Numbered from the stretch's first letter, positions 42,619 to 59,543 are shown. The stretch: DNA of 64,000 bases from an uncultured Roseburia sp. (GCA_947038265.1 CAMQVP010000001.1:124968-188967), one strand, 5' to 3'. Program-made: numbers and translations. The notes: generated by a model from the letters alone, not told the origin.

Positions 42619-42630
42619 AACAGAGGTTTT

Positions 42631-42710
42631 GCGGGTATGGCGGAATTGGCAGACGCGCCAGATTTAGGTTCTGGTGGGAGACCGTGCAGGTTCAAGTCCT
42701 GTTACCCGCA
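42631..42710 (+). tRNA. tRNA-Leu (anticodon TAG)
   Basis: Acceptor GCGGGTA pairs with TACCCGC, the D-arm is GCGGAATTGGCAGACGC, the anticodon loop is TTTAGGT (TAG) and the T-arm reads GGTTCAAGTCC. The 3' 49 nt are duplicated at 59488-59536. Confidence 0.85.
42662..42710 (+). repeat. attL-side direct repeat (tRNA-Leu 3' end), identical to 59488-59536
   Basis: Forty-nine of 49 nt are identical. Flanking sequence diverges immediately outside both copies. Confidence 0.9.
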
Positions 42711-42765
42711 TGATTTCAGGGTTTTTGAAACATTTGAGATGTTTCAGAGACCCTGTTTTTTTGCA

Positions 42766-42789: not shown

Positions 42790-43034
42790 AGAAAAATAAG
42801 GATATAATTCAAAAATTTCGAGACCATTTTCGGATATGCCTTAACAGGGTTTTTTCTGCTGAAAGCATAACACATCTTCATTTGTCTTTCAATTAGTTTC
42901 ACTTTTCCTCTTTTTTATGAAACAGTGTTAAAAATTTTTATGTAGATTTTTACAAAAAAATATAATAAAATATCAAAAAAGAGGTTATATAGTATATTTT
43001 TTATACTGCATAACTTAATATAGGAGAAATGATA

Positions 43035-45236
43035 ATGAAAATAATTTCTGTTAAAAATTTTCCAAAAGAAAACCTTGAAAAAAGTTATCCAAACACTTCT
43101 TCTTTACCCAAAAGACTTTCCCCGGAAGAAGCATCTGAAAAAGGCATTCCAATTTATATTAGCGCAGACTGGTATACTGTCATAAAGGGAAAACCCATCT
43201 GTTTTGTATTTCTCTCTTTCCGTCAGCATCAAGTTTATGGAGAAGATGAAAATCAGCTGCAGGACTGCCTTTATTCTATAAACTTATGGGCGGATTCACA
43301 ATTATTTGATATTGAACTTCCAAAGCAGGAAATCTATAATTCAAAATGGCTAAAGCAGCTCCATACGAAAAACCTCATTTTGATTTCTAAATCACAATAT
43401 GAACTTCTGCTTCAAGCCATACAGCCGGATACAAATAGCTCCTTTTATTTTGAGAAAATCGGCATTCATCAACTTTATGGAAAATACTATTATGCAGCTT
43501 CCAATTGTGCCATTACATCAGAGGGCATTGACAAATCCATAAAAGCGATGCAGGAAGGATTCAATTTAGAAATCGATTCCGAACTTTCGTTGAAAGACGA
43601 AGCCCCAAAAAAAAGCATTGAGAATTTTATGGACTACACTGCCCAGAATTACCGCGTCTTTTATCCTATCCACTGCATTTCTATTCTCGCTGTCCTAAGA
43701 TACTTTTTAAAAAAACTGGGCCGATCGGCAGGAGCCGTGCTATGGATTGACGGAAAGGTTGCCAGTGGGAAAACACAATTAGCCGTAACTATGGGTGACT
43801 TTTTCAACCGAAGCAGTAATTGGGAAGACCAGATTAAACATCTGCAAACCACCAAATCAAAACCAAAACTAATTGCAGCAGAACTTTCCAAATACAGGAA
43901 TGCTGTATTTATCCTTGACGATATTAAAAAAGAAGAAACATCTGGCAGCCGGGACAATACCAAAAACATTACAGATCTGCTCATCCGCTCTATATACACC
44001 GGAAAAACAGGGGGTTTTGGCACAGATGAGCAGCCGATTGACGCTGCTGCCGTTATTACAGGGGAGTATTTTAAAGAAATAGAATCCACATCATCAAGAC
44101 TGCTCTATTTGAATATAGACGATTTTTTACAGAAAGAAACAAACAGCAATCAATTCAAAAATATTCAAAAAGACAAATCTTACCTTGCTAAGTTTATGTC
44201 CTATTTTATACAATGGCTATTTCAATGGATAGAAGACATCAATAATGCTAAATTCTTAGAAACCACACTTACTAATTTACAAAATGATGCAGCAGAATGT
44301 TTTCATGGAGAATTAAGTACGCGAATGGCTGAGACGCTGGCAAATTTCCAATTAGTATCAGAAATCCTCAATGAGTATTTTAAAGAAAACCAGATTCCAA
44401 AAATAAACTGCACAGAATTTCATAAGAAATCCAGAGATTCTCTAAAAAATCTCGCTTACGCCACATTATACAAAAGTCTGAATTACTATCCCCTCATAGA
44501 GGAGTGCTTTTATAAAACACTGTCAGACCTTAAAATCAAAGACTGCCGATACGGGGAACATTATTTAAATATCGCATTGTCATCAGGAAATGACCATCTA
44601 CTACATATAGCCAAAGCTAAAGATACAGATTACCTTCATGAACCTGGAGCAAGCGCTATCAATTACGACGCCAAAGGTGAAAAGAAACTCTGGCTGTTGG
44701 GACTTCAGGAAGGCTACGACGGCATCATGTTAAACATAAAAGAATGCAATGTATTATTAGTAAAATCCAAAGTTCTATGCAGTCTAATTCGCGAGAAAAT
44801 AAAATCAGATATACAAAAGTGGCATATTAAATTATATCATTCTGATATGGAAGATGAAAGAATCCTAAACACCCTATTGGAACATCATTGCATTTATGGA
44901 TACAAACGGAGAGACAACAATTCATTTGATAAGATCATCAATTATCCTGAATTCTCCAGCAACCAAAATTTACTGAAGGAATATCATGAAAAACCATTTA
45001 TTGAGCAAGAACAGATGCATCATATGGTAAAAATAAACATAGCAAATGAACGTATATATAATAGAATTACAGATATAAAAAAGCCAGCTATGGATTCGTT
45101 TGCAACTTTATTTTCTGCTATGAACACATATGATTCAAGCGAAGGCAGACATTTTATAGAACCAAACGATGGTCCATACATGAAAAACCTCAAAGACATA
45201 TTTGCTAAAATTAATAGATTTTCAGACCTCCGGTAA
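43035..45236 (+). CDS. Large (733 aa) P-loop NTPase of unknown function (Walker A GKVASGKT, Walker B VFILDD); candidate island replication/primase-helicase-like or defence ATPase
   Basis: The Walker A motif LWIDGKVASGKTQLA lies at ~aa 240 and the Walker B motif NAVFILDDIKKEE at ~aa 295. The gene is AT-rich and is the first gene inside attL, directly upstream of xis-int. I could recognise no other domain. Confidence 0.5.
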   Translation: MKIISVKNFPKENLEKSYPNTSSLPKRLSPEEASEKGIPIYISADWYTVIKGKPICFVFLSFRQHQVYGEDENQLQDCLYSINLWADSQLFDIELPKQEIYNSKWLKQLHTKNLILISKSQYELLLQAIQPDTNSSFYFEKIGIHQLYGKYYYAASNCAITSEGIDKSIKAMQEGFNLEIDSELSLKDEAPKKSIENFMDYTAQNYRVFYPIHCISILAVLRYFLKKLGRSAGAVLWIDGKVASGKTQLAVTMGDFFNRSSNWEDQIKHLQTTKSKPKLIAAELSKYRNAVFILDDIKKEETSGSRDNTKNITDLLIRSIYTGKTGGFGTDEQPIDAAAVITGEYFKEIESTSSRLLYLNIDDFLQKETNSNQFKNIQKDKSYLAKFMSYFIQWLFQWIEDINNAKFLETTLTNLQNDAAECFHGELSTRMAETLANFQLVSEILNEYFKENQIPKINCTEFHKKSRDSLKNLAYATLYKSLNYYPLIEECFYKTLSDLKIKDCRYGEHYLNIALSSGNDHLLHIAKAKDTDYLHEPGASAINYDAKGEKKLWLLGLQEGYDGIMLNIKECNVLLVKSKVLCSLIREKIKSDIQKWHIKLYHSDMEDERILNTLLEHHCIYGYKRRDNNSFDKIINYPEFSSNQNLLKEYHEKPFIEQEQMHHMVKINIANERIYNRITDIKKPAMDSFATLFSAMNTYDSSEGRHFIEPNDGPYMKNLKDIFAKINRFSDLR

Positions 45237-45315: not shown

Positions 45316-45486
45316 ATGAACAATTATGAAAAAGCTGCTTTGAGCGTAGAAGAAACTGCCAAATACTTAAACATTGGAAGGAGCTTATGCTACCGGATGA
45401 TCAGGGAAAACAAAATTCCTCATTTGAAATTTGCAAGCCGGATTGTCGTTCCAAAAGTTAAATTGGACGAAATGTTAAGTAAATAA
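45316..45486 (+). CDS. xis: Excisionase-family helix-turn-helix DNA-binding protein (Xis-like, HTH_17)
   Basis: The 56-aa protein reads MNNYEKAALSVEETAKYLNIGRSLCYRMIRENKIPHLKFASRIVVPKVKLDEML, with RBS AAAGGATGA. It is not in the ORF track because of its small size. Confidence 0.8.
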   Translation: MNNYEKAALSVEETAKYLNIGRSLCYRMIRENKIPHLKFASRIVVPKVKLDEMLSK

Positions 45487-45554
45487 AAACGAAAGCACAA
45501 AGAGCAATCAGTAACGGTTGCTCTATTTTTATGCATTTTACGGAGGCACAGATT

Positions 45555-46760
45555 ATGAAAAAAAGAAGTAATGGAGAAGGCACAATCTGCAAAAGGAATG
45601 ATGGAAGATGGATGGCTCAAATCCTCATTGATACCGGATATGGAGAATTTAAAAGGAAAACCGTATATGGAAAAACACAGCGTGAAGTGAAAGAAAAATT
45701 AGAGCAGTTAAAATCAGACCAAAAACAAGGCCGGGTAATTGAAACTTCGGATATGCCTTTAGAACAGTGGATGAATATCTGGATTACAAATTATAAACCG
45801 GATTTGAAGATTACAACAAGAGAAGATTATGAATCCTATATTAATACGCATATCCGAGGATCAGATTTAGGAAAGATTCCTTTGAACAAATTAAAAACAA
45901 CGGATCTGCAATCATTTTATAACAATAAGCTTGCCGGAACCTGCAAAGGTCAAAAGAAGAAATTATCACCAACCACAGTCCGGTATATTCATGTAATTAT
46001 CAAAAGTGCGTTAAATCAGGCAATTCAAAACCGGATGATAAACAACAATGCTGCAAATGCAGTCGTTCTCCCAAAAAAGAACAAGACGGAAATCATTCCT
46101 CTCACGCAGGAAGAAGTAATCCGCTTCCTTGAAACCGCAAGAGGGGATCGGCTATATGCACTATATTTGCTGGAAATGATGACCGGATTACGAAAAGGAG
46201 AAATTTTAGGCTTACAATGGAATGACATTGATTTTAAATGCAAAAGAATTACTGTTTCGCATAATCTCTGCCGGATTAAAAGCCGAAATAAAAATGCAGG
46301 AAAAAAATATGAATTAATCCTGATGAATCCTAAAACAGCAACCTCCAAAAGATGTATTCCCATCAATGATTTTATGGCTGACGAACTGCAAAAACATAAA
46401 TTGCACCAGATGAAAGAAAAAGAATTATACGGTGACTATTACAATGACCTTGGAATGGTTTTTTGCAAGCCAGACGGAAACTACATTTATTCCAGGGATT
46501 TTCTAAGACAATATCAAAATCTCCTTTCTAAAGCCGGTCTGGAAAAAAAACGGTTCCACGACTTGCGCCATACAGTAGCCAGCCTGCTTATCAATGCAAA
46601 TGAAAATCCTAAAATGATACAACAATTACTCGGCCACTCAAATATAAGCACTACACTGGATATTTATGCGCATGTAATGGACAAGTCCATGAATAAAAGC
46701 GTGGATAAAATCTATCAGCAGCTAGGTTTAAATTCCATACCCCAAAAAAAGAATCCCTAA
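45555..46760 (+). CDS. int: Tyrosine site-specific integrase (phage integrase family)
   Basis: The N-terminal SAM-like domain reads MKKRSNGEGTICKRNDGRWMAQI. The catalytic motifs read FHDLRHTVASLL (HxxR) and LLGHSNISTTLDIYAHV (the nucleophile Tyr). The start sits at an ATG after CGGAGG. Confidence 0.92.
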   Translation: MKKRSNGEGTICKRNDGRWMAQILIDTGYGEFKRKTVYGKTQREVKEKLEQLKSDQKQGRVIETSDMPLEQWMNIWITNYKPDLKITTREDYESYINTHIRGSDLGKIPLNKLKTTDLQSFYNNKLAGTCKGQKKKLSPTTVRYIHVIIKSALNQAIQNRMINNNAANAVVLPKKNKTEIIPLTQEEVIRFLETARGDRLYALYLLEMMTGLRKGEILGLQWNDIDFKCKRITVSHNLCRIKSRNKNAGKKYELILMNPKTATSKRCIPINDFMADELQKHKLHQMKEKELYGDYYNDLGMVFCKPDGNYIYSRDFLRQYQNLLSKAGLEKKRFHDLRHTVASLLINANENPKMIQQLLGHSNISTTLDIYAHVMDKSMNKSVDKIYQQLGLNSIPQKKNP

Positions 46761-46881
46761 TACAGTAAGCCTGCCACTGGCCAGCCTTTCTGCATACTGA
46801 GACAGTATAAGAAGCCTATGAACTACTTAGCTTTCATAGGCTTCCTATTTGATTTCTCATTTTTAAAAACAAGGCTGTCTA

Positions 46882-47775
46882 TCAAAAATATCCTTCTGCC
46901 TCCTCTGCAGAAAGGCCGTATTCTTCCATAATCGTTTCTTTGATTTCCGCATCTCCATGCCCAAATTTTCGAAGCATGTCTATTGCTCCCTGAATTCCCT
47001 GCTGCAATCCTTGCTGCAGTCCTTGCTGAATTCCCTGTTGCAATCCTTCGCTTATCTTTTCTTCATCCCTTAATAATAACTGTGGTTCCATGATCTCCAT
47101 TAACGCCTGGCACATACTAGCATCTCCCTTCCATTCTTCCACTGCCTGCCTGTTTGCCCCTATGCTGACCTCTAGAACGGAATCTGCCAGCTCCAGGTCG
47201 TTTTTTCCTGTCAGACTCCGGATTTTTTCCAGCAGTTCCGTTATGTCCTCTTTCTCCAGTTTTTCCGATAACGCTCCAAGCCATGTATGCTCCGCCTTAT
47301 CCAGCTCGCCCGTGACAACAACCTGCACAGGAAACATATTTTTCCCTTTTATATAATATATCCCCCGGTACGGGTTGGATACCATATATCCATGCTCCGC
47401 AAAATATCGGAAAAGCCCTTCCGGCCTTGTTTCCCGGAGCAGCGACACCGTAATGTCATCCTCTTTTCTTTCATCAGCCGCTTTCCCATAAGCTTTATAA
47501 AGGCCTGCATATGCCAGGGCTTTGTAAAAGGCGTCTATATCCAAATGGTCTTTGGGCGATTTGTATTCCATAATGTTATGCCCCAAAAAGAAGGCCCCTA
47601 TTTCATTTCCAATCCGCACGGATGGTTCTTTTTTTATCACCAGCAGGTCAATTTCCAAAGGCTTGGTGTTTAAATTATATTCTTTCTCAAAGACCAGCGC
47701 ATCCCGGTTCTCTGCAAGCTCCAAACCCATTGCTGCCACAAAGCCCGGATGCCACTGCACTTTCCTGTCTTTCAT
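46882..47775 (-). CDS. Rpn-family recombination-promoting nuclease / putative transposase (PD-(D/E)XK, TIGR01784-like)
   Basis: The N-terminal core reads LEIDLLVIKKEP...FLGHNIMEYKSPKD. The C-terminal tail reads EGLQQGIQQGLQQGLQQGIQGAIDMLRKFG with characteristic QQG repeats. Confidence 0.6.
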   Translation of the reverse strand: MKDRKVQWHPGFVAAMGLELAENRDALVFEKEYNLNTKPLEIDLLVIKKEPSVRIGNEIGAFFLGHNIMEYKSPKDHLDIDAFYKALAYAGLYKAYGKAADERKEDDITVSLLRETRPEGLFRYFAEHGYMVSNPYRGIYYIKGKNMFPVQVVVTGELDKAEHTWLGALSEKLEKEDITELLEKIRSLTGKNDLELADSVLEVSIGANRQAVEEWKGDASMCQALMEIMEPQLLLRDEEKISEGLQQGIQQGLQQGLQQGIQGAIDMLRKFGHGDAEIKETIMEEYGLSAEEAEGYF

Positions 47776-48043
47776 AGTAATCTCCTTTGTGTGGTTAAAT
47801 TATAACATACCTTTCATAATTTCCGCAACCGCCCAAATCTCTACATTAAATTACCTTAGCAGGTATATAAATTTTCCATGTATCGGAAACGGCTGCAGGA
47901 TTTAGATTCCACAGCCGCTTCTGCTTCTTTTTCTTATTCCTCATTCCCATCCTTAGACAAAAGCGCGAGAACCGCCGTCAATATCCCCGCTACAACCGCC
48001 TTGATGATATGCTCCATAATTCCAACCGCCTTTCTGCGCTGCT

Positions 48044-48922
48044 TCATGCAATCCGTATCTCCCCGCTCTTTCTGTCATAGAGGTACACACTGTCCGACAG
48101 CCGCTCCTCCGGCATCACCTGCGTCCGGTTTACCTCCTTTACGATCTCCGCCAGTTCCTCCGGCTTCCCTGCGGAGACAGGGAGCAGCAGGATTTCATGT
48201 ATCGAGCTTGGCAGGATGTACAGGTCGCTTCCCAGTTCCTGCGCCAGCCCGGAAAACTCCCCCGCAAACAGCATGGCCGCAGCGCCGCCCAATTTAAAAC
48301 GGTTTGTGGCGACATACATCTGAATGGGGCTGCAGCCGCTGTCTGCAGGCGCTCCCAACATCTCACGGATGACTTTGTCCATGGTCTGGATTTTCGTCCC
48401 TCCGTTCTTTTTATGGTTCTCATACGCAGCTTCTCGCAGCTCTCTTTGGCAGATTCCCCAGTAATCCATATGGCTGTCTGTAATCAGGACTGCTGCAAAT
48501 CCGTCCCTGCCCGTTTCTGCAGTGAAATAATAGGCCTCTGCCAGATCCAGGAATCGTCTATGCGGCACGTCCTCCAGCATTTCCCTGTTCTTTTGGTAAT
48601 GCACCAGCCGTACGGAAACCTTTTTCCTTACACGTTTCCAGTCCATGAATTCCCCTTTGTCTAACGGCGTCTTCCCTGCATACTGCAGGTACAGACCCCA
48701 GATCTCCTCCACGGTTTCCCCAAATCCTTTCCCTCCGCACAGCTTTTCATGCCATGCGTCCAGGTAGATGACAGGGGAAGCCTCATCTCCCGGCCTTGAC
48801 AGAATCATCCCCGTCCGTTTTACGGAATTATTTTTTATGGTTTCCCGTATTTCCACGCTTCCGGTTCCCAGCCGGAACTGCATTTCCTCTTTTATTTTCT
48901 GCTTAAATTTTTCAAAATCCAT
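48044..48922 (-). CDS. Hypothetical protein (DUF5688-like, common on Firmicutes conjugative elements)
   Basis: The ~290-aa protein starts at an ATG after AAGGAGGAA. I recognised no catalytic motif. The family assignment is from memory only. Confidence 0.35.
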   Translation of the reverse strand: MDFEKFKQKIKEEMQFRLGTGSVEIRETIKNNSVKRTGMILSRPGDEASPVIYLDAWHEKLCGGKGFGETVEEIWGLYLQYAGKTPLDKGEFMDWKRVRKKVSVRLVHYQKNREMLEDVPHRRFLDLAEAYYFTAETGRDGFAAVLITDSHMDYWGICQRELREAAYENHKKNGGTKIQTMDKVIREMLGAPADSGCSPIQMYVATNRFKLGGAAAMLFAGEFSGLAQELGSDLYILPSSIHEILLLPVSAGKPEELAEIVKEVNRTQVMPEERLSDSVYLYDRKSGEIRIA

Positions 48923-49062
48923 CTCCACGCTTCCTCCTTAAAATAATCTGGGCGCATGGCATTTTCCCCATGCGCCCGCGTTATGTCCCGGCATTTATAA
49001 AATTATTCTTTGGGGTACGCATTAAATGCCGCATACCCATTTTGCAATGCGTATCCCGTCCT

Positions 49063-49272
49063 TTACGCCCTCCATGTAAAGGGCCGCTTCTTTCCAGCGG
49101 GCCTGTGGTCAAGGAGCATCCCTGCCTGCGTCCGCTCTTTTCCGCTTAAGCCGCCTCCCAGTATTTTTTCCAGCTCCGCAAACGTTTCCCCCTGCTCCGG
49201 GAGGCCCTGCTGTTTCGACAGCATGTCCAGCCGCTTTTCAACCGCCCATGCGGTAAAATCCTCTTCTTCCAT
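49063..49272 (-). CDS. Small hypothetical protein (69 aa)
   Basis: The protein reads MEEEDFTAWAVEKRLDMLSKQQGLPEQGETFAELEKILGG. The start sits after AGGAGG. Confidence 0.35.
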   Translation of the reverse strand: MEEEDFTAWAVEKRLDMLSKQQGLPEQGETFAELEKILGGGLSGKERTQAGMLLDHRPAGKKRPFTWRA

Positions 49273-49313
49273 GTCCTGCCTCCTGAAAATCCCATGGGGA
49301 TTTTGTCCATCCA

Positions 49314-50036
49314 CTATGCCGCTTCCTTCGGCTTTGTCCTCTTGAGGCTTCCCAGCGCCTTTTTGTAGATCTCCGGCGTCATCTGGCCTGTTCCTTTGAG
49401 CTGGTATCTGTCTAAGACCGCTTCCATGGCGATCCCCGTCCGCTCCAGCTCCTTTTCCAGTATCCGCATCTGGCCCGCCGTCAGCCCTTCCGGCGTTTTA
49501 TCAGGAGCTGCTTTATTTTCCGTCTCCCGGTCCAGCCCGTACACTTTCACTCCCCTCTGGTTTACGACTGCAAGAGCTGCAATTTCCCTCCGCCCGTTGT
49601 ACCCGATTGACTGCACGCGGAAACGGTCTTTTGCCACATAGCGGTCCCCATTTTTCTGGATGTCCGCTTTTTCAGCCGGAACCCAGATGAACGGGGCCGT
49701 ATAGAGCTCGCGCCCTATGCCCCAGTTGAAACACGCCCTCTTGAAGGAATCCGAAGCCTGCCCTTTCTCCTTTTCCGAATGACTCATAACGCCCACGTCC
49801 TGTTTTGCGATCCACTGCTTTTTCTCACTGTCCCAGACCTCCACCGTGCAGTACAGGTTCCCGTCGATGCTCTGGTGGCTCCTTTTCCAGCCGAAGGGCG
49901 AAAATGTCTCGTCCAATATCTTCTGGTCCACGCGCGCGTCCTTGAAAAGCAGGAGGCTTAAGCCGTTCCCGTTTATCGTGGACACCCTGCATTCAATCTC
50001 ATCCGCCCGCAGCAGCCGTATCATGTCATCTCCCAT
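49314..50036 (-). CDS. Rad52/22-family single-strand annealing protein (phage SSAP)
   Basis: The motif FSPFGWKRSHQSIDGNLYCTVEVWDSEKKQWIAKQDVGVMSHSEKEKGQASDSFKRACFNWGIGRELY is the Rad52 N-terminal annealing domain signature. Confidence 0.75.
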   Translation of the reverse strand: MGDDMIRLLRADEIECRVSTINGNGLSLLLFKDARVDQKILDETFSPFGWKRSHQSIDGNLYCTVEVWDSEKKQWIAKQDVGVMSHSEKEKGQASDSFKRACFNWGIGRELYTAPFIWVPAEKADIQKNGDRYVAKDRFRVQSIGYNGRREIAALAVVNQRGVKVYGLDRETENKAAPDKTPEGLTAGQMRILEKELERTGIAMEAVLDRYQLKGTGQMTPEIYKKALGSLKRTKPKEAA

Positions 50037-50181
50037 ATGGTTTTTCCTTTCCGTTTTTATATGCTTTTTCATTGCCTGTTCTTTTCTGCTTCTTTTCCGC
50101 TTCTTTCTGCCGCTTTATCCTTCCGCTCCATTCTTTTTGTCATCAGGATGACGGTTCCGGCCGCTTTCCACTGGCTCTGCC

Positions 50182-51111
50182 TTATGCGACAGACAGCCTC
50201 CGGTAGCTGCCCTTCCCACAGTATTCCTCGTAAATCTCCCGGTGTTCCTCTTTCAGCCACTTCTTGTCAAAGGTTGTGGTCGTGACTGTTTTCCAGTCAA
50301 TGCGCCGTTCCCCGACTGTGCCGCTCTCATTTTCTTTCAGGTAAGTTTTGATTTTGTTTGTAACGGCCTCCTTCTGCTCTTTCAGCTCGTCGATCCGGCT
50401 GCTCAGCTCGTCGTACCGTTCGCAGAGCTGCAGGGCCTCTTCCGGCAGTTCTACGCATTTTCCATTGGAAGCGCCATATCTTTCATTCAGGAAATCTGTG
50501 GTTGCGCCGGAGCCGTCCGCTTCCGGCTCTTCTCCTGCCAGCACGCAGTTTTCCCAGAATTCCCGTTCCATGCGGATAATGCTTCTGATCATCTCCTCAT
50601 CCCGGCATACTTCGTGATAGAGGAACGTGTTTCCTCCGACCAGCGCCGCAATGTATGTCTTTTCCGCTCCCGTGACTGCCATGTAGTGCTGGATCTGGTA
50701 CTGGTATTCCAGCGGGACGCCCTCTTCCCAGATCTCCCGCTTGTAGGCGCTGGCTGTCTTTGCCTCAAAGATGCAGAGCTTTCCGTCTTCGTAAATGACG
50801 CCGTCTAAATCCGCAAGCATGAACGGGTATTCCCCGCTCTGCAAAATCGCCATCTTCCTGCGCACCTTCAATCCTGTGCGCCGCATGAACTCTTTCCGGA
50901 CGACGGGTTCCAGCACGTTCCCGAAATAGATATATTCGGATTCCCCCTCTTCCGGTTCTTTCTGTCCGGTCTTGTCCAGCCATAGATCAAATATGGAGCG
51001 GAACGGGTTCACCCCTGCGATCACGGAGGCGTCCGAGCCGCCGATGCCCATGCGCCGCCATTTCAGCCATTCCTTCCGTTCCATGCCGTTTGTCTTCGCT
51101 AAAATTCTCAT
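50182..51111 (-). CDS. YqaJ-like viral recombinase-associated exonuclease (lambda-Exo/PD-(D/E)XK)
   Basis: The YqaJ N-terminus reads WLKWRRMGIGGSDASVIAGVNPFRSIFDLWLDKTG. The start sits at an ATG after GGGAGG. Confidence 0.75.
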   Translation of the reverse strand: MRILAKTNGMERKEWLKWRRMGIGGSDASVIAGVNPFRSIFDLWLDKTGQKEPEEGESEYIYFGNVLEPVVRKEFMRRTGLKVRRKMAILQSGEYPFMLADLDGVIYEDGKLCIFEAKTASAYKREIWEEGVPLEYQYQIQHYMAVTGAEKTYIAALVGGNTFLYHEVCRDEEMIRSIIRMEREFWENCVLAGEEPEADGSGATTDFLNERYGASNGKCVELPEEALQLCERYDELSSRIDELKEQKEAVTNKIKTYLKENESGTVGERRIDWKTVTTTTFDKKWLKEEHREIYEEYCGKGSYRRLSVA

Positions 51112-51191
51112 TTTTTCTTTTCCTCCCTGTAATTTTTTTGTTTTTTTGTTAATTTTGGAAGCATTTCTTCCGGAACATTTCACAGGCCCCG

Positions 51192-52067
51192 CTATGCAAT
51201 GCTTTTCACAAGGCCGTATGCCTTATCAAGCGCGGCATTCCCGTCCATGACTTTTGCAAACAGGCTCTCCCTGCGGTTTGCGCTCCCGCGCAGCGGCTTC
51301 CCGTGGGTGCTGAAATCCGACACTGCGTTTAGGAAGCGGTACGCGTTCTTCGGCACGTCCCTTAAGTCCGGGGCGTCGAAGTAGCGTGCCTTCATGTCTT
51401 CCCTGAGTTTCCGGATGTTGCCCTTCTGCACCCGCCCCATGCCTTCATCCAGGGGAAGAAGCGCGTTCATGCAGTCCTCTGCCTTATGGTCTGCCAGCTT
51501 AATGCGGCTCAAGGCTTCAAACTCCCTGCCGAGCGCATCCATGTAGCGCTCCGCCATAAAGAGCGTATGCTCCGCCTCCCCGATCTTATCCTGCACGCCT
51601 GCCGTGTGCATGGCGGACCAGCTTCTTGCAGCTGTGCCAAGCGCAAGGTTCAAAGTATTGCTGCACACGACACGCACGGGCGTCATCGCCACGCGGATTG
51701 CGCCGCTCCCGTCATGGGTGTTGGAGAAGACCATGTAGGGGCTGACGCGGTCGCCAAGCATAATGTACTCTCTCGGCATCCGCGCCAGAACCCAGACTTT
51801 CCTTCCCCCATTTAAAGAGCCTGCCGTCTCGTAGCGCACGCCTTCGCCCAAAAGCCTGTCCGTAAATGCAAAAGCTTCCTCATTCTGCACCACCCGGTAG
51901 CGATCTGAGACGATCCCCAGGACTTTTTCATCGGAATCCCTCACGTTTGCCTTAAAGCCCGACACAGGCTCCCCGTCTTCCGTTAAGATTTCCTTCTGCA
52001 CGACCTTCCAGCCCAGACCGGACGCCGCCAGCGCCTCCGCGGAGCTTAACGCGTCCGCCACCTTCAC
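51192..52067 (-). CDS. DUF932 domain protein (phage/plasmid-associated)
   Basis: The motif VVQNEEAFAFTDRLL...VFSNTHDGSGAIRVAMTPVRVVCSNTL matches DUF932. A GTG start is likely. Confidence 0.6.
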   Translation of the reverse strand: MKVADALSSAEALAASGLGWKVVQKEILTEDGEPVSGFKANVRDSDEKVLGIVSDRYRVVQNEEAFAFTDRLLGEGVRYETAGSLNGGRKVWVLARMPREYIMLGDRVSPYMVFSNTHDGSGAIRVAMTPVRVVCSNTLNLALGTAARSWSAMHTAGVQDKIGEAEHTLFMAERYMDALGREFEALSRIKLADHKAEDCMNALLPLDEGMGRVQKGNIRKLREDMKARYFDAPDLRDVPKNAYRFLNAVSDFSTHGKPLRGSANRRESLFAKVMDGNAALDKAYGLVKSIA

Positions 52068-52322
52068 CCCCAGCCCATGCCAGGGTTTTTCCCTTGTTTA
52101 AAACATTGTTTCCACATCTGCTGCCATTTCTGCATTCCTCCTTGTATATTAATATATAAAAACAGGGCTGCAGATTCCGCACGCACACGGTTTTCCACAG
52201 CCCTGTTTCTGCCTGTTTTAAATATTCTTCTGCTTATGCTGTTTTTTATTTCCTGCCGGGAACGCGCCAGTACATGAAAGCAGAAAAATGGGGCGTCTGC
52301 TTCCGCCCCATTTCCCTCCCGG

Positions 52323-55300
52323 TTATTTTTTCACTTTCACCGCTTTCTTTATGGTTCTATATGCGCCTTTGATTTTTGCGCCGCCTGCCTGCACGTAGGC
52401 GCACGCCCGGACATAGTATCTCTTCCCGCCTTTCAGGTTTGTTAATTTCTTTGAAACCGTCTTGTTTTTCTTAACCGTGGCGGTTTTTACGTTTTTCCGG
52501 AACTTTTTGTCCGTGCTGCACTCTATAATATATCCGGTGGCGGCCTTGTCCTTCTTCCACTTCACCGTGAGCGTCTTTGCTTTTGTGGATTTCGCGGAAG
52601 TTCCGGACAGCTTCTTTGGCGCCACCGTAAGCGTTATTGTCTTTGACGCGGCCTGGTACCTGCCGTTTGCCGCAGCGGTGATTACAATCTCCGTCACGCC
52701 GCAGCCTTTCAGCGTCACGGCGCCGTTTCCGTCCACGGAGGCGACTGCCGGGTTTTTCACGGCGTAGGACAGCGCGCCGCCTCCGCTTGATTTTGCGCCG
52801 ATGGAAAACGGCCTGTCGCCGTAAGTTTTGGCAAGGTCGGCGGCCGTGACGGTCTGTGTTTTTTTATTCTCCGGCTTCTCCTGGCTGCTGCCTCCTGCGT
52901 CTGGCTTCTGCGCGCCTCCCGGCTTCTGATCCCCTCCGGGCTTTGGGCTTACCGTGACGGCAATCGTTTTCTCTGCCGGGCCGTAATTCTCCGTCTCGGA
53001 AGCCTTTATGGTGATCCGGGCCGTCCCAGCCCCCATAAGGACCACAGTCCCTTTCGCGGACACAACCGCGACGGCTTCATTGTCGCTCTCATAGGACAGC
53101 GCGCCGTCCCCGTCCGTGCTGGCCCCGATGGGAAATGGCCCGTCTCCGAATGTTTTTTCAAAATCGCCCGCCATGATCGTCTGCGGCTCCTTCTCGTCCG
53201 CCGATGCCTTATGCCGGATGCCGTTCTCCACCGCATACGCCGCCGCCGAGCCCCTGGCGCAGACCATGCAGAGCCCCTCGCTGCAGCCCGCAAAGGCTCC
53301 CTCACCGATGGTCTGCACGCTTTCCGGGACTATGGCCTGCTCCAGGGCTGTGCAGCCTGCAAAGGCTCCAGCCCCGATCTCCTTCACGTTCGCGCCGACC
53401 CTCACCCTCTGCAGCGCCTCTATGCCGTAACAGGCTCTTTCTGCAATGGAGGACACCTCATATGTGCTTCCATTGATTGTTACGAGGTTTGGTATTGTTA
53501 CCACTGTGCGGTCATCATTAAGGCTCGTAAAGCACGCCTCTTTTGGCTCCGTGCTGGTGATTGTATACGTGCATCCCCCTATGTCATAGCTGGTCCCTGC
53601 CAGATCTGCGGGAGGCGGGTTTTCCCCGGCCCCTGACGCCGGGTTTACCGTGATGGTGATCACTTTCTGCGCCGCCTCGTATTCACTTGTTTCAGCCGCG
53701 GCAATGGTGACCTGTGCCGTTCCGGCTCCAATGACTGCCGCAACTCCTTTTGAGGAGACAATGACCACAGACTCATCGCTGGACTGATAAGACAGCACCC
53801 CGTCGCCGTCCGTGCTGGCTCCAATCGGGAATGCCGCGTCACCGACTGTCTTCGTATGGTTGCTTGCTGTAATCGTCTGTGGCTTTTTTGATATGACGGA
53901 ATAATCCATTCCATGTTTTTTTGCATATCTCTCTGCATAAGAACCCTTTGCACAATAAATGCATAAATCATCCCCGCATCCGTAAAAAGCATTGTAGCCT
54001 ATTTCCTCGACGCTGCCCGGCATGACAACTTCCTCCACTCCCAGACAGCCCTCGAAAGATGCATCGCCAATAATCTGTACGCCATCTGCCACTGTTATCC
54101 TGCCTTCCTTTCCCGCAGGGCATCGGATAAGGCTTTTAGGAGCTGCGTCTTCTCCTTTTCTGTATAGAATCCCATCCAAAGAAATATATACCCCGTTGTT
54201 TTTATCCACCATTATTTCCGTCACTCTTTTGCAGCTGGAAAAAGCATCTTCCGCTATGCCGGTAATGTCCTGTGGTATAGTTACGCTACCCTGCTTCCCG
54301 GCTGGACAGAACTGTAGTATGCGGCCCAGATACAGCATCCCTTCCCGTACGCTGAATAGCCTGTTCGCTTCATTCACTGTTATTTCCGCTAAATTCGTAC
54401 AGTCGCTAAATACGTCTGCAATTGAGGATTCTTCATCTCCTATTGACGCAATGCTTTTTGGCATTGCAATTCCTGTAATTCCACCGCAGCCGATAAATGC
54501 TGAAGCTTCTATATATTGAGCCTTTTCTTGAACGTCAATGGCTCCCTGCTTTCCTGCTGGACAGCAGACGAGGCGGGTTCCCGAATTTCCAAATTTGGAT
54601 CCTATATAATACAACGCGCCGTCCGAAGAACAATAATTTACATTCTCTTTGTCCACAACTATCTCGGCTAACCTGCTGCAGCCTTTAAAAGCGGTGTATT
54701 CAAGATTTCCATACTCATCATATGCTATATCTGTAACATCTTTTGAAATATTAATCCTTTCTAAATTACTGCAGCCATAAAACGCTCCGCGCTCTATTTG
54801 CGCCACATTATCCGGCACTGTGACGATTCCCTGCTTTCCAGCCGGACAGAATATCAAAGAAACGATTGATTCTTCATATTCATTTAGTACATTTTTATAT
54901 AATATGCCGTCTAAAGAACTGCAATATCTACTATTCGCATCCACAACGATCTCCGTCAGATTGCTGCATCCAAAAAATGACGCGGCGCTTACGATCATGA
55001 CGCTTTCTGGTATGGTTATGCTTGTCAATTCCCTGCAGTTATAAAATGATACAGAGTCTCCTTTGTCTCCAATCATTCTTACCCCTTCTGGTATTACCAA
55101 GCTCCCCTTCTTTCCTGCTGGACAGCAAAGCAGTTTTGTCCTGTCGCTATTATACAACACCCCTTCTAAGGAACTAAATTCTGTGTTGCCTGAATCAACC
55201 GAAATTTTTGATAAGTAAGGGCAGTTGCTTAATGCATTATATCCCAAAACTTTAACAGAATAAATTGGGCCTAGCTCGCGTTCATATCGCCATGTGTATG

Positions 55301-56018
55301 TAGCAATTGCCGTGACGCTTTCTGGTATAGTAATGTCACCTTGTTTTCCAGCCGGACAGCAGAGTAGAGTCGCCATGCTTTTATCGTACAGGACGCCATC
55401 TTTCGAACTATACTGCGCATTGCCTTCCCCCACTATAATCTCTGTCAATTTTTTGCAGTCATTGAGCGGCATATATGAGCCATATTCTTCATCAAGATAA
55501 CCAATTTTAGCAACGCTTTCAGGTATGGTAATGCTTCCTCTTTTCCCTTTTGGGCAATGAAGCAGGCTCGTCTTGCTTTCATTATACAGGATTCCATCCT
55601 GTGAGCTATACCACGCATTGCCTTCCTCTACAATAATCTCTGTCAGATTTTCACAGTCGTCAAATGCCATATGTGGGTAAACTCCGTAATCTCTGTCTTC
55701 TTCCTCAATCTCCTTAACGCCTTCCGGTATTGTAACGCTTTCTAACTGACTACAGCCGCTAAATGCATTCATTCCTATCTTCACAACCATCTTTCCGTCT
55801 ATTTCAAACGGAATAGCAAGAACATTGGCACTGCCTTTATATTTGATAATTTCAACTTTTCCAGCCTCCAGTTCCTTATACTCAAATCCGTCTTCTATGC
55901 TTTCCGCATTACCTGCCTCCCGCGCCTCCGCCGCTTTCGCCTCATGCATCCCGGCGGGATAGCTTACTGTGCCCGCTGTAACGCAAAGCGCCAGCAGGGC
56001 TGCCATGATTCTCTTCAT
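52323..56018 (-). CDS. Secreted cell-surface protein: signal peptide, multiple BspA-type leucine-rich repeats, 3x Big_2 Ig-like domains, C-terminal fibronectin type III domain
   Basis: The signal peptide reads MKRIMAALLALCVTAGTVSYPAG. The repeats read GNAxYSSxDGVLYxK..T.LLCCPAGKQG.ITIPESV. The Big_2 domains read TVGDAAFPIGASTDGDGVLSYQSSDESVVIVSSKG..VIGAGTAQVTI, three times. The FN3 domain reads TLTVKWKKDKAATGYIIECSTDKKF...KRYYVRACAY. The start sits after AGGAGG. Confidence 0.7.
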   Translation of the reverse strand: MKRIMAALLALCVTAGTVSYPAGMHEAKAAEAREAGNAESIEDGFEYKELEAGKVEIIKYKGSANVLAIPFEIDGKMVVKIGMNAFSGCSQLESVTIPEGVKEIEEEDRDYGVYPHMAFDDCENLTEIIVEEGNAWYSSQDGILYNESKTSLLHCPKGKRGSITIPESVAKIGYLDEEYGSYMPLNDCKKLTEIIVGEGNAQYSSKDGVLYDKSMATLLCCPAGKQGDITIPESVTAIATYTWRYERELGPIYSVKVLGYNALSNCPYLSKISVDSGNTEFSSLEGVLYNSDRTKLLCCPAGKKGSLVIPEGVRMIGDKGDSVSFYNCRELTSITIPESVMIVSAASFFGCSNLTEIVVDANSRYCSSLDGILYKNVLNEYEESIVSLIFCPAGKQGIVTVPDNVAQIERGAFYGCSNLERINISKDVTDIAYDEYGNLEYTAFKGCSRLAEIVVDKENVNYCSSDGALYYIGSKFGNSGTRLVCCPAGKQGAIDVQEKAQYIEASAFIGCGGITGIAMPKSIASIGDEESSIADVFSDCTNLAEITVNEANRLFSVREGMLYLGRILQFCPAGKQGSVTIPQDITGIAEDAFSSCKRVTEIMVDKNNGVYISLDGILYRKGEDAAPKSLIRCPAGKEGRITVADGVQIIGDASFEGCLGVEEVVMPGSVEEIGYNAFYGCGDDLCIYCAKGSYAERYAKKHGMDYSVISKKPQTITASNHTKTVGDAAFPIGASTDGDGVLSYQSSDESVVIVSSKGVAAVIGAGTAQVTIAAAETSEYEAAQKVITITVNPASGAGENPPPADLAGTSYDIGGCTYTITSTEPKEACFTSLNDDRTVVTIPNLVTINGSTYEVSSIAERACYGIEALQRVRVGANVKEIGAGAFAGCTALEQAIVPESVQTIGEGAFAGCSEGLCMVCARGSAAAYAVENGIRHKASADEKEPQTIMAGDFEKTFGDGPFPIGASTDGDGALSYESDNEAVAVVSAKGTVVLMGAGTARITIKASETENYGPAEKTIAVTVSPKPGGDQKPGGAQKPDAGGSSQEKPENKKTQTVTAADLAKTYGDRPFSIGAKSSGGGALSYAVKNPAVASVDGNGAVTLKGCGVTEIVITAAANGRYQAASKTITLTVAPKKLSGTSAKSTKAKTLTVKWKKDKAATGYIIECSTDKKFRKNVKTATVKKNKTVSKKLTNLKGGKRYYVRACAYVQAGGAKIKGAYRTIKKAVKVKK

Positions 56019-56296
56019 ATCGTTCCTCCTTTGATTTTTGTCTTTTTGTCTTTCCATAATTCAAACCCTTATGCGCATCCCTTGCCTCTTTTCATTTGTA
56101 AATGCCTTGCATCTCCCCTTTCCCGCTCTTCCTAAAAGCCGACTTTCTTTTTTCTGAAAATGGCTTTTCACTCCATCATGCCTTACATTTTATATCCTCT
56201 AAGCAAATTTTACAATGCTTATAGCAATTATATTTTCTCCCAAAGCAAAACGCAGCATTATATCATGAATAAAACAAACTCTGGAGGTGAATGATT

Positions 56297-56587
56297 ATGG
56301 TAAACGGTCTCGGCAAGCGTCTGGAACAGGCAAGGGTAAACCTGCACCTTTCGCAGAAGGAAGCCGCGGCGGCGATCGGAGCGTCCGCCTCCGTCATTTC
56401 CAATTATGAGAGCGGGGAGCGCACGCCAAGCGTGGAGAACCTCATGGCCTTAGCCTCCCTGTACCGCTGCTCCACCGACTATCTGCTCGGCCTTCAAAAG
56501 CCGTCCGACGCTTATGTTGACGCTTCCATGCTGGACGGCAGGCAGCGCCAGCTCCTGCAGGACTTCCTTCGGGGACTGGGCGGTTAG
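56297..56587 (+). CDS. XRE-family HTH regulator
   Basis: The HTH reads LEQARVNLHLSQKEAAAAIGASASVISNYESGERTPSVENLMALASLY. The RBS GGAGGTGA lies 8 nt before the ATG at 56297. Confidence 0.8.
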   Translation: MVNGLGKRLEQARVNLHLSQKEAAAAIGASASVISNYESGERTPSVENLMALASLYRCSTDYLLGLQKPSDAYVDASMLDGRQRQLLQDFLRGLGG

Positions 56588-57153: not shown

Positions 57154-57684
57154 TCATTTCTCTATCTCCTCTTTTAAGATCTGCCTGAACCTGTCCTGCC
57201 GTTCCCGTGTCTGCCTCATATTCTCGCGCCGTTTGTTTCCTGTGGTAAAATTTACGCTGTTAATGACAAAATGAATATGTATGCAGTCATTGCCACTGTC
57301 TTTCGTATGTGCGCCATATACAACCTGGCAGTGGTCCCTCTCATAAAAATCATATGCCATTTTCCGTGCAATCTTATCCACGTCTATTCTTTTTTCCTTA
57401 ATATGCCTTTCTTCCACAGATGAACAGGAATAAATCTCATGGTCCACATACCGCCCAAATTTACCTTTCCTCCTGTGCATCTTCTGTACGTCTTCAAACT
57501 GCCTTGTCATTCCTTCCGTCCCCGTAAATTCTGCAACGCCTATGCCGCCCCATGTAATCAGGTCATTGTCCGGCTTTCCATTTGTGCGCGTTACATACCG
57601 GATCAAATATACCATATCCTGAAAATTAGAATATTTTCCTTTTCTGGCTTTGTTAAGTAATAATCCGTATTCTGAACTTTTCAT
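57154..57684 (-). CDS. Relaxase/mobilization nuclease N-terminal domain (MobA/VirD2-like), apparently truncated
   Basis: The HUH motif III HTKDSGNDCIHIHFVINSVN fits HxDxxxxxHxHxxxN. The ORF stops 22 aa later, so only 176 aa remain, and it overlaps the mobC stop by 4 nt. Confidence 0.6.
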   Translation of the reverse strand: MKSSEYGLLLNKARKGKYSNFQDMVYLIRYVTRTNGKPDNDLITWGGIGVAEFTGTEGMTRQFEDVQKMHRRKGKFGRYVDHEIYSCSSVEERHIKEKRIDVDKIARKMAYDFYERDHCQVVYGAHTKDSGNDCIHIHFVINSVNFTTGNKRRENMRQTRERQDRFRQILKEEIEK

Positions 57685-57971
57685 TTTCTAAAATCCTCCC
57701 CAAATTTTTTCAGCGCCGTCTGAAATATTTTCCTCACCTCCTGCTCCGTCTGCCTGCCGTCAGACATTACCAGGCCATGATAAATCTCATTTAACAAATT
57801 ACAGATGTCAATTTTATCTGAAATAAAACGATAACTACTGATTTTTTCTTCCATGCTTTTTCTCAATATATAGACACTCATGCTTTCATTATTTTGTTTT
57901 GATAAGTATTTTAATTTTTCTTTTTGTTCTTTTGTTACTCGTAGTTTTATAGATTCATTTTTTGTTTTCAT
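57681..57971 (-). CDS. mobC: MobC-like ribbon-helix-helix mobilization accessory protein
   Basis: The RHH segment reads IKLRVTKEQKEKLKYLSKQNNESMSVYI. The gene is translationally coupled to the relaxase ORF. Confidence 0.6.
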   Translation of the reverse strand: MKTKNESIKLRVTKEQKEKLKYLSKQNNESMSVYILRKSMEEKISSYRFISDKIDICNLLNEIYHGLVMSDGRQTEQEVRKIFQTALKKFGEDFRK

Positions 57972-58258
57972 TCTTTTCTCCTTTTATAAATTTAAATATA
58001 TATAGCAGGTACGCAATTTTTCTTTTCATTTTTCATAAAATTCTGCTGTTTTACAAATGCATATCGTTGTTAAATTCTAATTTTTTTGTGGGTACATTTT
58101 TTTGATTCCTTATCAAATTGTCAGAAGCCATTTATCGTTTTGTTAGACATAACATAAAAATAATGAGGATCATAAATGCGCATGACCTCTATTGCTCAGT
58201 TGTGAGTAGAAAAATAATTATTTATAATTGAAGCATTCCGCTTTGGAAAGGAGAGAAA

Positions 58259-58414
58259 ATGGACGACTATTACATGACCGTAAAAGAATTCTGTGAGAGG
58301 CTGCAGGTCAGCCCGTCAACTGTTTACCGGATGATAAAGAACCATATGATCCCTGCTGTGAAATTTGGACGGTATTGGAAAATACCAAGAAGCGTATTTG
58401 ATTCCATACATTAG
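58259..58414 (+). CDS. Excisionase-family HTH DNA-binding protein (second xis-like gene)
   Basis: The 51-aa protein reads MDDYYMTVKEFCERLQVSPSTVYRMIKNHMIPAVKFGRYWKIPRSVFDSIH, with RBS GGAAAGGAGAG. It is not in the ORF track. Confidence 0.8.
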   Translation: MDDYYMTVKEFCERLQVSPSTVYRMIKNHMIPAVKFGRYWKIPRSVFDSIH

Positions 58415-58505: not shown

Positions 58506-58733
58506 TCAAAGCCTTATGGCATTGCCTGAAAAAGGATGCGCCCGTTCAAAATCAGAAGCCTCCCTGCTGATTTCTTCCGGCGTTTTCCTGTCAAAATACC
58601 CTCTTTGCCATTTTGTATAATCAAATTTTTCTCTGATAACAAAGGAAATGAACTGCTCTGCCTCCACAATTCCCATTTGATCTGTCAGGCATTTCATGCC
58701 CCTGTTCATAATTTCAACCATATTTGCAGACAT
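58506..58733 (-). CDS. Small hypothetical protein (75 aa), translationally coupled partner of the PIN-like gene
   Basis: Its start abuts the PIN ORF stop (58733/58734). I recognised no motif. Confidence 0.35.
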   Translation of the reverse strand: MSANMVEIMNRGMKCLTDQMGIVEAEQFISFVIREKFDYTKWQRGYFDRKTPEEISREASDFERAHPFSGNAIRL

Positions 58734-59177
58734 TTAATCCGCCTCCGTTTCTGTTACAAATTCGATTGGCGTAACCATTTTTATTTCATTCGTTTGATAC
58801 TTTAACAGCCGCTTATCCGTGGATATAAAATAGCTGCATTCCGCATAAATCGCCGAGGCAACATGACAGGCATCTTTAAATTTGATGCCAGTCTCCATAA
58901 TTTTCTGCGCTTTTTCCTCAATTTCTTTTTGGCATCTATCCCCTACATATACATGTGTATGTTTGTTCATAAACTCAAAAATTGTATTTTTTCGCATTTC
59001 AAATGGATTCTGGCTGCATTCGTACCTAAGCATATACGATGCGGCCATTTCCAGTTTTCTTTCTTTTATCAGGTTTTGAATATGAAGCTTACACTGCGTT
59101 TCCATTGCTACTTTCAACTGTGACTGATCATCATACGGCCTGTTGAAACAACACATATCAAGATAAACCCTCAACAC
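58734..59177 (-). CDS. PIN-domain (VapC-like) putative ribonuclease toxin
   Basis: The N-terminus reads VYLDMCCF. The C-terminal motif KDACHVASAIYAECSYFISTDKRLL fits the VapC pattern DAxIAAxA...LvTxDxxF. A GTG start is likely. Confidence 0.5.
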   Translation of the reverse strand: MLRVYLDMCCFNRPYDDQSQLKVAMETQCKLHIQNLIKERKLEMAASYMLRYECSQNPFEMRKNTIFEFMNKHTHVYVGDRCQKEIEEKAQKIMETGIKFKDACHVASAIYAECSYFISTDKRLLKYQTNEIKMVTPIEFVTETEAD

Positions 59178-59536: not shown

Positions 59537-59543
59537 TATACAG

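Follow-up and report, generated by a model that had tools for sequence, protein, structure and literature searches.

A conserved DUF932–YqaJ–annealase–DUF5688 gene module in integrative islands of Lachnospiraceae

What is an exonuclease and annealase pair of the kind found in phages doing on a small chromosomal island that has mobilization genes and no capsid genes? The question is raised by a block of six co-oriented open reading frames (ORFs) at 46882-52067, all on the minus strand, in a 64,000-nt stretch of DNA from an uncultured Roseburia sp. (GCA_947038265.1, CAMQVP010000001.1:124968-188967; the whole stretch is called the window below). The initial annotation of the window described this layout correctly and took the block to be cargo, a leading-region or anti-defence-like module. 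We find instead that four of its genes, encoding a DUF932 protein, a YqaJ exonuclease, a single-strand annealing protein (SSAP) and a DUF5688 protein, form the conserved core of an element family. With moderate confidence, we favor the reading that the block is the core module of widespread integrative, often mobilizable Lachnospiraceae islands of about 15–20 kb, in which a RecET/Red-like annealing system with DUF932 and DUF5688 as accessory partners serves repair of the island's DNA. The features of the block, in the direction of transcription, are:

51192-52127, minus strand: DUF932 (UPF0380/YubP-type) protein, first gene of the module (PF06067, TIGR03299)
50182-51183, minus strand: YqaJ/lambda-Exo/RecE-type 5′-3′ double-stranded DNA (dsDNA) exonuclease; likely start ATG 51111, giving 309 aa
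49314-50072, minus strand: Rad52/Sak/Erf-type SSAP, 252 aa (PHROG and phage homologues)
49063-49314, minus strand: small ORF, 69 aa from ATG 49272 or 83 aa from GTG 49314 (ORF lists, gene calls)
48950-48977, minus strand: terminator-like hairpin between the small ORF and DUF5688 (10-bp stem, 8 GC pairs, T-rich tail)
48044-48928, minus strand: DUF5688 protein, last gene of the four-gene module (PF18941)
46882-47775, minus strand: PD-(D/E)XK-type protein of 297 aa, a remote Rpn relative (invariant core residues)

A four-gene module built around an exonuclease and an annealase

Three of the domain names first given to the block hold under hidden Markov model (HMM) search, each above its cut-off. 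DUF932 matches PF06067 (1.4e-55, 189 bits against a cut-off of 23) and TIGR03299 (3.2e-56, 190.8 against 110.7), YqaJ matches PF09588 over all of the profile (2e-38, positions 1-150/150), TIGR03033 (4.6e-34, above the 68-bit cut-off) and, over its full length, the RecE-like phrog_434 (3.7e-104), and DUF5688 matches PF18941 from end to end (1.7e-84, 284 bits against 34.5, positions 1-290/290), its most conserved motif being D235..P-S-S-x-H-E. The Rad52 name fares less evenly. In Pfam the Rad52_Rad22 match is just below threshold (E = 6.7e-4, 20.1 bits against a cut-off of 20.3, residues 89–133 only), while the superfamily is backed by PHROGs (phrog_1097, Erf-like SSAP, 2.3e-15; phrog_14970, 1.2e-84) and by phage homologues, with 45–46% identity to annotated Rad52/22 SSAPs of Ruminococcus (R. 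gnavus) phages and 14 lactococcal phage matches in tblastn searches. No PDB sequence match was found for the SSAP, even using a 24-sequence profile, and PDB-sequence profile searches for DUF932, DUF5688 and the 297-aa Rpn-like protein likewise gave nothing meaningful.

The SSAP gene begins 109 nt past the YqaJ stop on the same strand, so that a YqaJ-family exonuclease adjoins a same-strand SSAP as in RecET and lambda Red. In those systems the YqaJ enzyme resects dsDNA ends 5′ to 3′, and the SSAP binds along the resulting 3′ tail and pairs it with complementary DNA independently of RecA. Domains and gene content thus support the proposal, made at the outset, of a RecET/Red-like pair on a relaxase-bearing, non-phage integrative element. 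Strong evidence that the SSAP slot encodes an annealase comes from non-orthologous replacement: in L098–L100 (L-numbers denote loci of related elements that we compared with the window), a RecT-family protein (PF03837) fills the slot between YqaJ and DUF5688, with DUF932, YqaJ and DUF5688 unchanged. The same swap shows that DUF932 and DUF5688 belong with the recombinase and not with one type of SSAP. YqaJ homologues fall into two classes of identity to the window protein, about 38% and about 58–72%.

Conservation of the four genes extends across Lachnospiraceae. An SSAP profile found 308 relatives in GTDB species genomes, and among the 80 loci fetched, nearly all of them from Lachnospiraceae, the recurrent genes are the SSAP (76 loci), YqaJ (70), DUF5688 (68) and DUF932 (63), all else being variable; tblastn of the window proteins and independent ORF clustering agree on this set. 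The canonical co-oriented order, DUF932 then YqaJ, SSAP and DUF5688, is found in 55/80 loci, while DUF5688 lies upstream of DUF932 in 4, contig ends cut 16 and a member is truly missing in about 5. Found in 55 of 80 independent genome loci, this arrangement is far beyond chance, and it is for this reason that we describe the four genes as a core and not as cargo. Genomes often hold several copies of the module. A megablast search of the block against plasmids and phages returned nothing.

The surroundings of the module recur as well. HTH (helix-turn-helix) genes come first, then a Big_2/leucine-rich repeat (LRR) or other membrane or surface protein, then the four genes, followed by a P-loop or DUF5906 primase-helicase-like gene, an excisionase (Xis), a tyrosine integrase (or large serine recombinase) and the chromosome. 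Clusters of flanking genes include tyrosine integrases (21 loci), serine recombinases (13), RadC (13), proteins like type IV coupling proteins (T4CPs; 13) and relaxases of the window's type (5), along with ParAB, Zeta/ParE toxins and STAND/AAA NTPases. Neither VirB4 nor terminase nor capsid genes occur among the recurrent flank clusters or the Pfam-annotated contexts of relatives. The small ORF behaves differently from the four core genes: tblastn matches it in L002–L007, L014 and L015 alone, that is, in close relatives, and no family match was found for it in Pfam, NCBIfam, PHROGs or PADLOC; the public gene call is the 69-aa version.

Every domain family in the block is already known, and so are exonuclease–SSAP pairs on conjugative elements. 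The novelty appears to lie in the linkage of DUF932 and DUF5688 to a recombinase in a module of four genes with fixed order, and in the island family so defined. DUF932 (YubP of the F plasmid, YfjQ/YafZ of Escherichia coli) is among the most abundant unexplained families of plasmids, integrative and conjugative elements (ICEs) and phages; the literature that mentions it gives it no function, and for DUF5688 we found no mention in the literature. A fixed order around a RecET-like pair offers both families a testable function, the handling of DNA ends or single-stranded DNA (ssDNA), and this hypothesis covers establishment, repair or recombination of mobile DNA.

The island and a possible role for its module

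The block lies on an island of 16.8 kb. Its two ends are marked by a direct repeat of 50 nt (42662-42711 and 59488-59537, 100% identical) that is the 3′ end of tRNA-Leu(UAG). To the left are chromosomal Mrp antiporter and purine (pur) genes, and to the right is a chemotaxis receptor (MCP) gene. Outside the block, the island carries the following features:

42662-42711, plus strand: attL, the tRNA-Leu(UAG) 3′ end (50-nt repeat; tRNA at 42630-42711 by ARAGORN)
43029-45236, plus strand: 735-aa P-loop protein (GKVASGKT), a putative replication/initiator NTPase, as judged from its position only
45316-45486, plus strand: excisionase-like HTH_17 protein (PF12728, 1.9e-10)
45531-46760, plus strand: tyrosine integrase (Phage_integrase 6.7e-28, Phage_int_SAM_3 1.1e-12)
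46807-46848, no strand assigned: terminator-like hairpin between the convergent integrase and Rpn-like genes (16-nt arms, 94% complementary)
52161-52207 and 52282-52317, minus strand: two strong hairpins between the LRR gene and DUF932 (terminator scan; ssDNA fold z = −4.07)
52323-56057, minus strand: BspA-type LRR/Ig-like surface protein of 1244 aa, variable cargo (LRR_5 5.3e-58, Big-like, fn3)
56291-56587, plus strand: HTH_3 (Cro/CI-type) regulator, divergent from the block strand (PF01381, 2.4e-16)
57154-57684, minus strand: MobA/VirD2-type relaxase, 176 aa (PF03432, 4.7e-11)
57681-57971, minus strand: NikA-like accessory gene (1.5e-5, below cut-off)
58005-58015, minus strand: conserved motif TGCGTACCTGC upstream of nikA, a candidate origin of transfer (oriT)/nic element, conserved in divergent DNA
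58259-58414, plus strand: second HTH_17 (Xis/MerR-like) gene (PF12728, 3.1e-14)
58506-58733 and 58734-59177, minus strand: gene for a 75-aa partner and PIN-like gene (PIN E = 2.8e-4, below cut-off)
59488-59537, plus strand: attR, second copy of the 50-nt repeat (identical to 42662-42711)

Within the att-bounded island, the initial description of mobilization genes without capsid genes is borne out: there is a relaxase and a NikA-like gene, and scans of its ORFs of 50 aa or longer with Pfam, PHROGs or NCBIfam turned up no family of a type IV secretion system (T4SS), capsid, portal or terminase. A complete prophage alongside, which had been named as a finding that would overturn that description, does not apply, no structural family being present between the att repeats. 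The island therefore has what marks an integrative and mobilizable element (IME): it encodes a site-specific recombinase, lies between att repeats, has a relaxase of its own and, over its 16.8 kb, lacks mating-pore genes. Its scanned ORFs also lack the packaging genes by which a prophage or satellite would be recognized. It resembles the IMEs of Firmicutes in its integrase with Xis, its tRNA att repeats, its small relaxase with an accessory protein and its lack of a T4SS. The difference is in the DUF932–YqaJ–SSAP–DUF5688 core, which is in none of the IME descriptions that we found; IMEs are defined by their mobility modules.

Relatives point to a mobile, site-specific element. A near-identical element (L014) is present in the mouse-gut metagenome-assembled genome "uncultured Lachnospiraceae MGBC140045," and the window's integrase module lies beside tRNA-Leu(UAG) both there and in L005. 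The chromosomal setting of L005 is different, which argues for mobility. GC content across the island is mosaic, about 35% at 42.7–46.8 kb and 57.6–59.5 kb and about 54% at 47–54 kb, compared with about 44% in the chromosome on either side, and this suggests modules of different origin. We ruled out two tandem elements, an idea prompted by the mid-island integrase and the mosaic GC, because there is no internal att copy and because the arrangement of DUF5688, Rpn-like, integrase, Xis and P-loop genes recurs in L005.

If the block works as its domains predict, YqaJ would resect ends and the SSAP would anneal them, forming an element-borne single-strand-annealing system of RecET/Red type. Such a system may act on the island's own DNA, repairing restriction or CRISPR breaks after transfer, excision or replication, and it may also recombine the island with related resident islands. 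Recombination among islands would explain the mosaic GC and the shuffled modules, and the inverted modules, the genomes with several copies and the SSAP swap fit it as well. DUF932 and DUF5688 would be conserved accessory partners, and the Rpn-like gene would be a separate toxin-antitoxin or defence-type nuclease in a variable slot.

By analogy, the function would resemble that of the ssb-bet-exo genes in the hde operon of IncC plasmids and SXT elements. These genes, on IncC plasmids and ICE R391, act in the recipient, repairing CRISPR-Cas breaks, and share an operon with two anti-restriction genes (Roy et al. 2020, PMC7498323). Both systems place a YqaJ exonuclease beside an SSAP on a transferable non-phage element, among co-oriented flanking genes without known anti-defence homology, and some relatives of the window module have RecT where the hde operon has Bet. 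In contrast to the hde operon, the window has neither ssb nor the vcrx089 AAA_5/CbbQ_C ATPase, its SSAP is Rad52/Sak-like and not RecT, its partners are DUF932 and DUF5688, its host is a Gram-positive anaerobe, and its vehicle is a small island without a T4SS. YqaJ is the only component common to the two, which makes the hde operon an analogue of the window module and not a fellow member. Establishment or evasion of defences by recombinational repair is a reasonable candidate function for the block. A stronger proposal, which we hold tentatively and regard as doubtful, is that DUF932 and DUF5688 work specifically with the exonuclease and annealase (for example in end or ssDNA binding, protection, or recombinase loading) and that the four proteins form a repair and defence-evasion system, a Gram-positive counterpart of hde. 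Were this true, DUF932/YubP would have a function for the first time. A working recombinase could have practical use as well, in the recombineering of Lachnospiraceae, which are hard to manipulate genetically.

Several observations weigh against an island-repair module of this kind. Mobilization is not shown for the whole family, since a relaxase or T4CP marker is missing from the surrounding ±10 kb in 62/80 loci and present in 18/80 (limited tblastn probes). Hundreds of IMG/VR contigs with DUF932 and YqaJ are classed as viral, and 68/160 fetched IMG/VR loci pair the two genes. DUF5688 occurs without a recombinase in L011, on the Butyrivibrio plasmid pNP21 and on many IMG/VR contigs, and it stands alone in apparent core chromosome in L008–L010 (10001-10927 and equivalents), between a GntR/aminotransferase gene and a pseudouridine synthase/DNA ligase gene, so the family is not confined to mobile elements. 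The module has no ssb gene, the terminator-like hairpin upstream of DUF5688 means that a single operon is not assured, and the window's DUF932 gene is interrupted at codon 10. In the DUF932 frame the canonical ATG, at 52127, follows a good ribosome-binding site (RBS); then comes an in-frame TAA (52100-52098) where L014, L015, L006 and L017 have TAC (Tyr), and past the stop the ORF restarts at GTG 52067 (51192-52067). Unless it is read through or translation restarts, the stop removes an N-terminus that is nearly invariant in the family. The window's DUF932 has therefore probably lost its activity as a pseudogene; alternatively, the TAA arose in sequencing or assembly or varies within the population.

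Leading-region, phage and defence alternatives

The initial annotation likened the block to the leading regions of conjugative elements and saw candidates for anti-defence or establishment functions among its members. In a strict version of this idea the block would enter the recipient first and be expressed early, possibly from the transferred strand, and DUF932, DUF5688 and the small ORF would inhibit host defences. The claim that such families are typical of leading regions stands in part. In plasmids, DUF932 and RpnB/RpnE are among the largest leading-region families, with DUF932 in the top three; UPF0380 YubP/YafZ (family 3, PF06067) has a median position of 1 from oriT and RpnB and RpnE have medians of 4 and 3, on the T-strand like YubP, whereas RecT, Rad52 and YqaJ families are not in the leading-region tables (Samuel et al. 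2024, PMC11541004). The hde operon, which joins anti-restriction genes to ssb-bet-exo, can be cited in favor as well (PMC7498323). RadC and an ArdC-like gene neighbor the module in relatives; on pNP21, DUF5688 is directly upstream of the ArdC-like ssDNA-binding gene and divergent from a Mob_Pre relaxase and T4CP. Elsewhere in IMG/VR, DUF5688 often adjoins RadC, on either side and without a recombinase.

The placement itself is less favorable. TGCGTAC(C/T)TG, or in extended form TGCGTAC(C/T)TG(C/T)T, upstream of nikA, is kept in the window and L014, in L091 (at about 2141) and in L093 (at about 5564), amid unalignable AT-rich DNA, and from this conservation it is a candidate nic/oriT or relaxosome-binding site; RNAalifold predicted no pairs in the nikA-upstream region. 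Between this motif, the sole oriT candidate, and the block there are at least 5 kb and no fewer than 6 ORFs (5.4–10.6 kb in one direction and 6–11 kb in the other around the 16.8-kb circle), far from the median position of YubP. Orientation also varies. In the window, L014, L038 and L082 the relaxase operon runs in the same direction as the block, and with the relaxase transferred last the transferred strand would template the block; relaxase genes enter the recipient last in F and RP4. In L091, L093 and L267 the module lies across the nikA-upstream region from the relaxase, an arrangement that can be read as favoring a leading position, but there the two are divergent, so that the block is not always templated by the transferred strand and a fixed relation to that strand is not a property of the family. 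Synteny with other islands thus gave a divided answer: the four-gene order recurs in Lachnospiraceae, while a constant relation to relaxase or strand does not.

Known anti-defence companions are likewise missing. The window has no ardA, klcA, psiB or ssb, and PADLOC reported no known defence system, only sub-significant partial matches (the Rpn-like protein to a "putative invertase" model at 7.2e-6, YqaJ to Cas4 at 0.0014). We rejected DUF5688 as a DNA mimic because the family is only mildly acidic (median pI 5.05), unlike DNA-mimic anti-restriction proteins. Compared with the leading regions of proteobacterial plasmids, the window is alike in having DUF932 and an Rpn-type gene on a relaxase-bearing element, and it differs in that their genes lie 1–4 ORFs from oriT with ssb, psiB, ardA and klcA (PMC11541004), while the window's are at least 5 kb from a candidate oriT without those partners and its Rpn-like gene is below thresholds. 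"Leading" also has limited meaning for an element of 17 kb. Conjugative transfer of 17 kb takes seconds. A leading region is therefore not established here, and we consider the anti-defence island unlikely.

We think it just as unlikely that the block is a phage-derived replication-recombination cassette, the remnant of a degraded prophage or of a satellite like the phage-inducible chromosomal islands, in which the system would serve helper-induced replication and concatemers instead of conjugation. The genes themselves have phage affinities. The SSAP, YqaJ and DUF932 have strong PHROG matches, the SSAP has homologues in phages of Lachnospiraceae, and DUF932 is encoded in 571 phage records; these are mostly of actinophages, with identities of about 30% and hypothetical genes around it, and its neighborhoods in two actinophages were uninformative. 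The combination of int/xis, a Cro/CI-type HTH gene and a P-loop or DUF5906 gene by the integrase is also found in satellites, and most loci lack detectable mobilization genes. IMG/VR adds 100 relatives of DUF5688 and more than 566 of DUF932 in alignment-based scans, which found many where single-protein scans had found none for DUF5688 and one locus for the SSAP. Some of these contigs have an unusual DUF5688 content: L164, L167, L169 and L172 (85–115 kb, classed as viral) carry three tandem paralogues.

Other evidence speaks against a phage or satellite origin for the cassette as it stands. No terminase, small terminase, portal or capsid gene was found in the island or in Pfam-annotated relatives, and the island has a relaxase and NikA-like gene of its own, with relaxase or T4CP markers in the 18 relatives noted above. 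The module shares its exonuclease and annealase families, and their adjacency on one strand, with the phage recombinases (lambda Red Exo/Beta, Rac RecE/RecT and the Sak-type proteins of lactococcal and Ruminococcus phages). The module itself differs in not being in a phage, and in the isolated Lachnospiraceae phages phiRgPS_6 and Ceridwen the SSAP homologue is beside Gam-like, NinB, NinG or hypothetical genes and not beside YqaJ, DUF932 or DUF5688. DUF5688 has no PHROG match and occurs in only 11 unannotated gut-metagenome records among 50,697 phage records, none of them isolated phages. On a 48-kb IMG/VR contig that holds the full module, no other marker of the module family except HTH was found, and the flanking ORFs do not look structural by eye, no family search having been made on them.

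A third account, in which YqaJ, the Rpn-like protein and perhaps DUF5688 are nucleases that protect the host or island from phages or competing elements, draws on the anti-phage role of Rpn proteins, on the variable slot past DUF5688 and on the PIN-/ParE-type toxin-antitoxin and nSTAND/AAA genes nearby in the family, but we regard it as very improbable for the block as a whole given that PADLOC yields sub-significant partial matches only, that YqaJ with an SSAP exchangeable for RecT marks a recombinase and no known defence system, and that the four core genes are conserved, not variable.

The Rpn-like gene and other parts of the island

The Rpn-like gene differs from the core genes in both its identity and its distribution. 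Its original label, Rpn/PDDEXK_2, fails under HMM search. PDDEXK_2 had no match in 41 distinct sequences (the window protein, 5 close and 35 more distant relatives), Pfam leaves the window protein and the 5 close relatives unmatched, and one family member matches PDDEXK_4. The sole Rpn signal is a C-terminal match to TIGR01784 (E = 0.003, 17.3 bits against a cut-off of 52.1), repeated below threshold in 12/36 family members (best 5.7e-6). An hhalign comparison of the family with two PDDEXK_2 neighbors gave probabilities below 5%, and we therefore reject Rpn family membership of the 297-aa protein. A nuclease fold is still indicated: H9, D43, E70, K72, Q151 and N208 do not vary at all across 36 sequences of 32–61% identity, M221 hardly varies, and H9/D43/E70/K72 fit a PD-(D/E)XK (D..ExK) core. 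The family is large (2855 representatives at 50% clustering).

M221 is of interest because its codon is an in-frame ATG (47115-47113) that could give a 77-aa C-terminal product. A Shine-Dalgarno (SD) box precedes it at 8 nt, AAGGGAG in the window and AAAGGAG or AAGGGAG across five elements with 65–91% protein identity, and ATG and SD box are kept in L015, L016, L017 and L057 as in the window. In the Rpn toxin-antitoxin systems, which act against phages, the RpnS antitoxin is made from an internal start within the Rpn gene (bioRxiv 10.1101/2023.05.02.539157), and by analogy the conserved start suggests a separate RpnS-like product here. The match to this design makes the gene more likely a defence than an anti-defence gene. 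Its slot past DUF5688 is occupied by at least three unrelated PD-(D/E)XK-type families, comprising the 297-aa Rpn-like protein in 8 loci (window, L002, L005, L014–L017, L057), a true PDDEXK_2 protein in 8/80 loci plus L098/L099 (for example L022 7467-8291, L098 15499-16347), and AAA-ATPase_like with PDDEXK_9 in L267 (14393-16161); in L093 an Rpn-like gene lies beside the integrase. The slot could be a variable nuclease or defence hotspot.

Upstream of DUF932, the hairpin at 52161-52207 has an 11-bp stem followed by TTTTT and ends about 20 nt before the DUF932 RBS; it may serve as an attenuator and not simply as a terminator. No Frpo-like ssDNA promoter was established. The two hairpins fold significantly but in an ordinary, terminator-like form. 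The AlphaFold2 model of DUF932 was poor (pLDDT 60; shallow alignment, 61–95% identity) and was not used.

At the integrase end, the 735-aa P-loop protein had no match in Pfam, NCBIfam, PHROG or PADLOC. A 530-aa protein of L096 that likewise precedes Xis-Int shares 22% identity with it (E = 7e-8), and DUF5906/D5_N primase-helicases take this slot in L100 and L011, although DUF5906 is not detectable in the 735-aa protein itself. At the other end, a 117-aa ORF separates the HTH_3 regulator from the relaxase. The relaxase is essentially the MobA/VirD2 nuclease domain alone, and the median of its cluster is also 176 aa (11 loci), indicating a typical minimal family and not a truncation. The PIN-like gene and its 75-aa partner are a probable toxin-antitoxin pair, and a homologous pair adjoins DUF5688 in L035. 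Just outside the island, at 61548-62120, overlapping minus-strand ORFs with repeated peptide motifs, such as PAFVWNPSFPA(F/V), and no Pfam match point to a tandem repeat in the DNA.

The most variable part of the island is the 1244-aa BspA-type LRR protein, which is 66% identical in L014 where neighboring genes are 96–100% identical. Relatives have Big_2, LRR_5 or YARHG/zinc-ribbon membrane proteins in its slot (Big_2/LRR in L094 and L098). The islands, a very common and previously undescribed family of small elements carrying variable LRR/Big adhesins between gut commensals, may shuttle adhesins among gut Lachnospiraceae.

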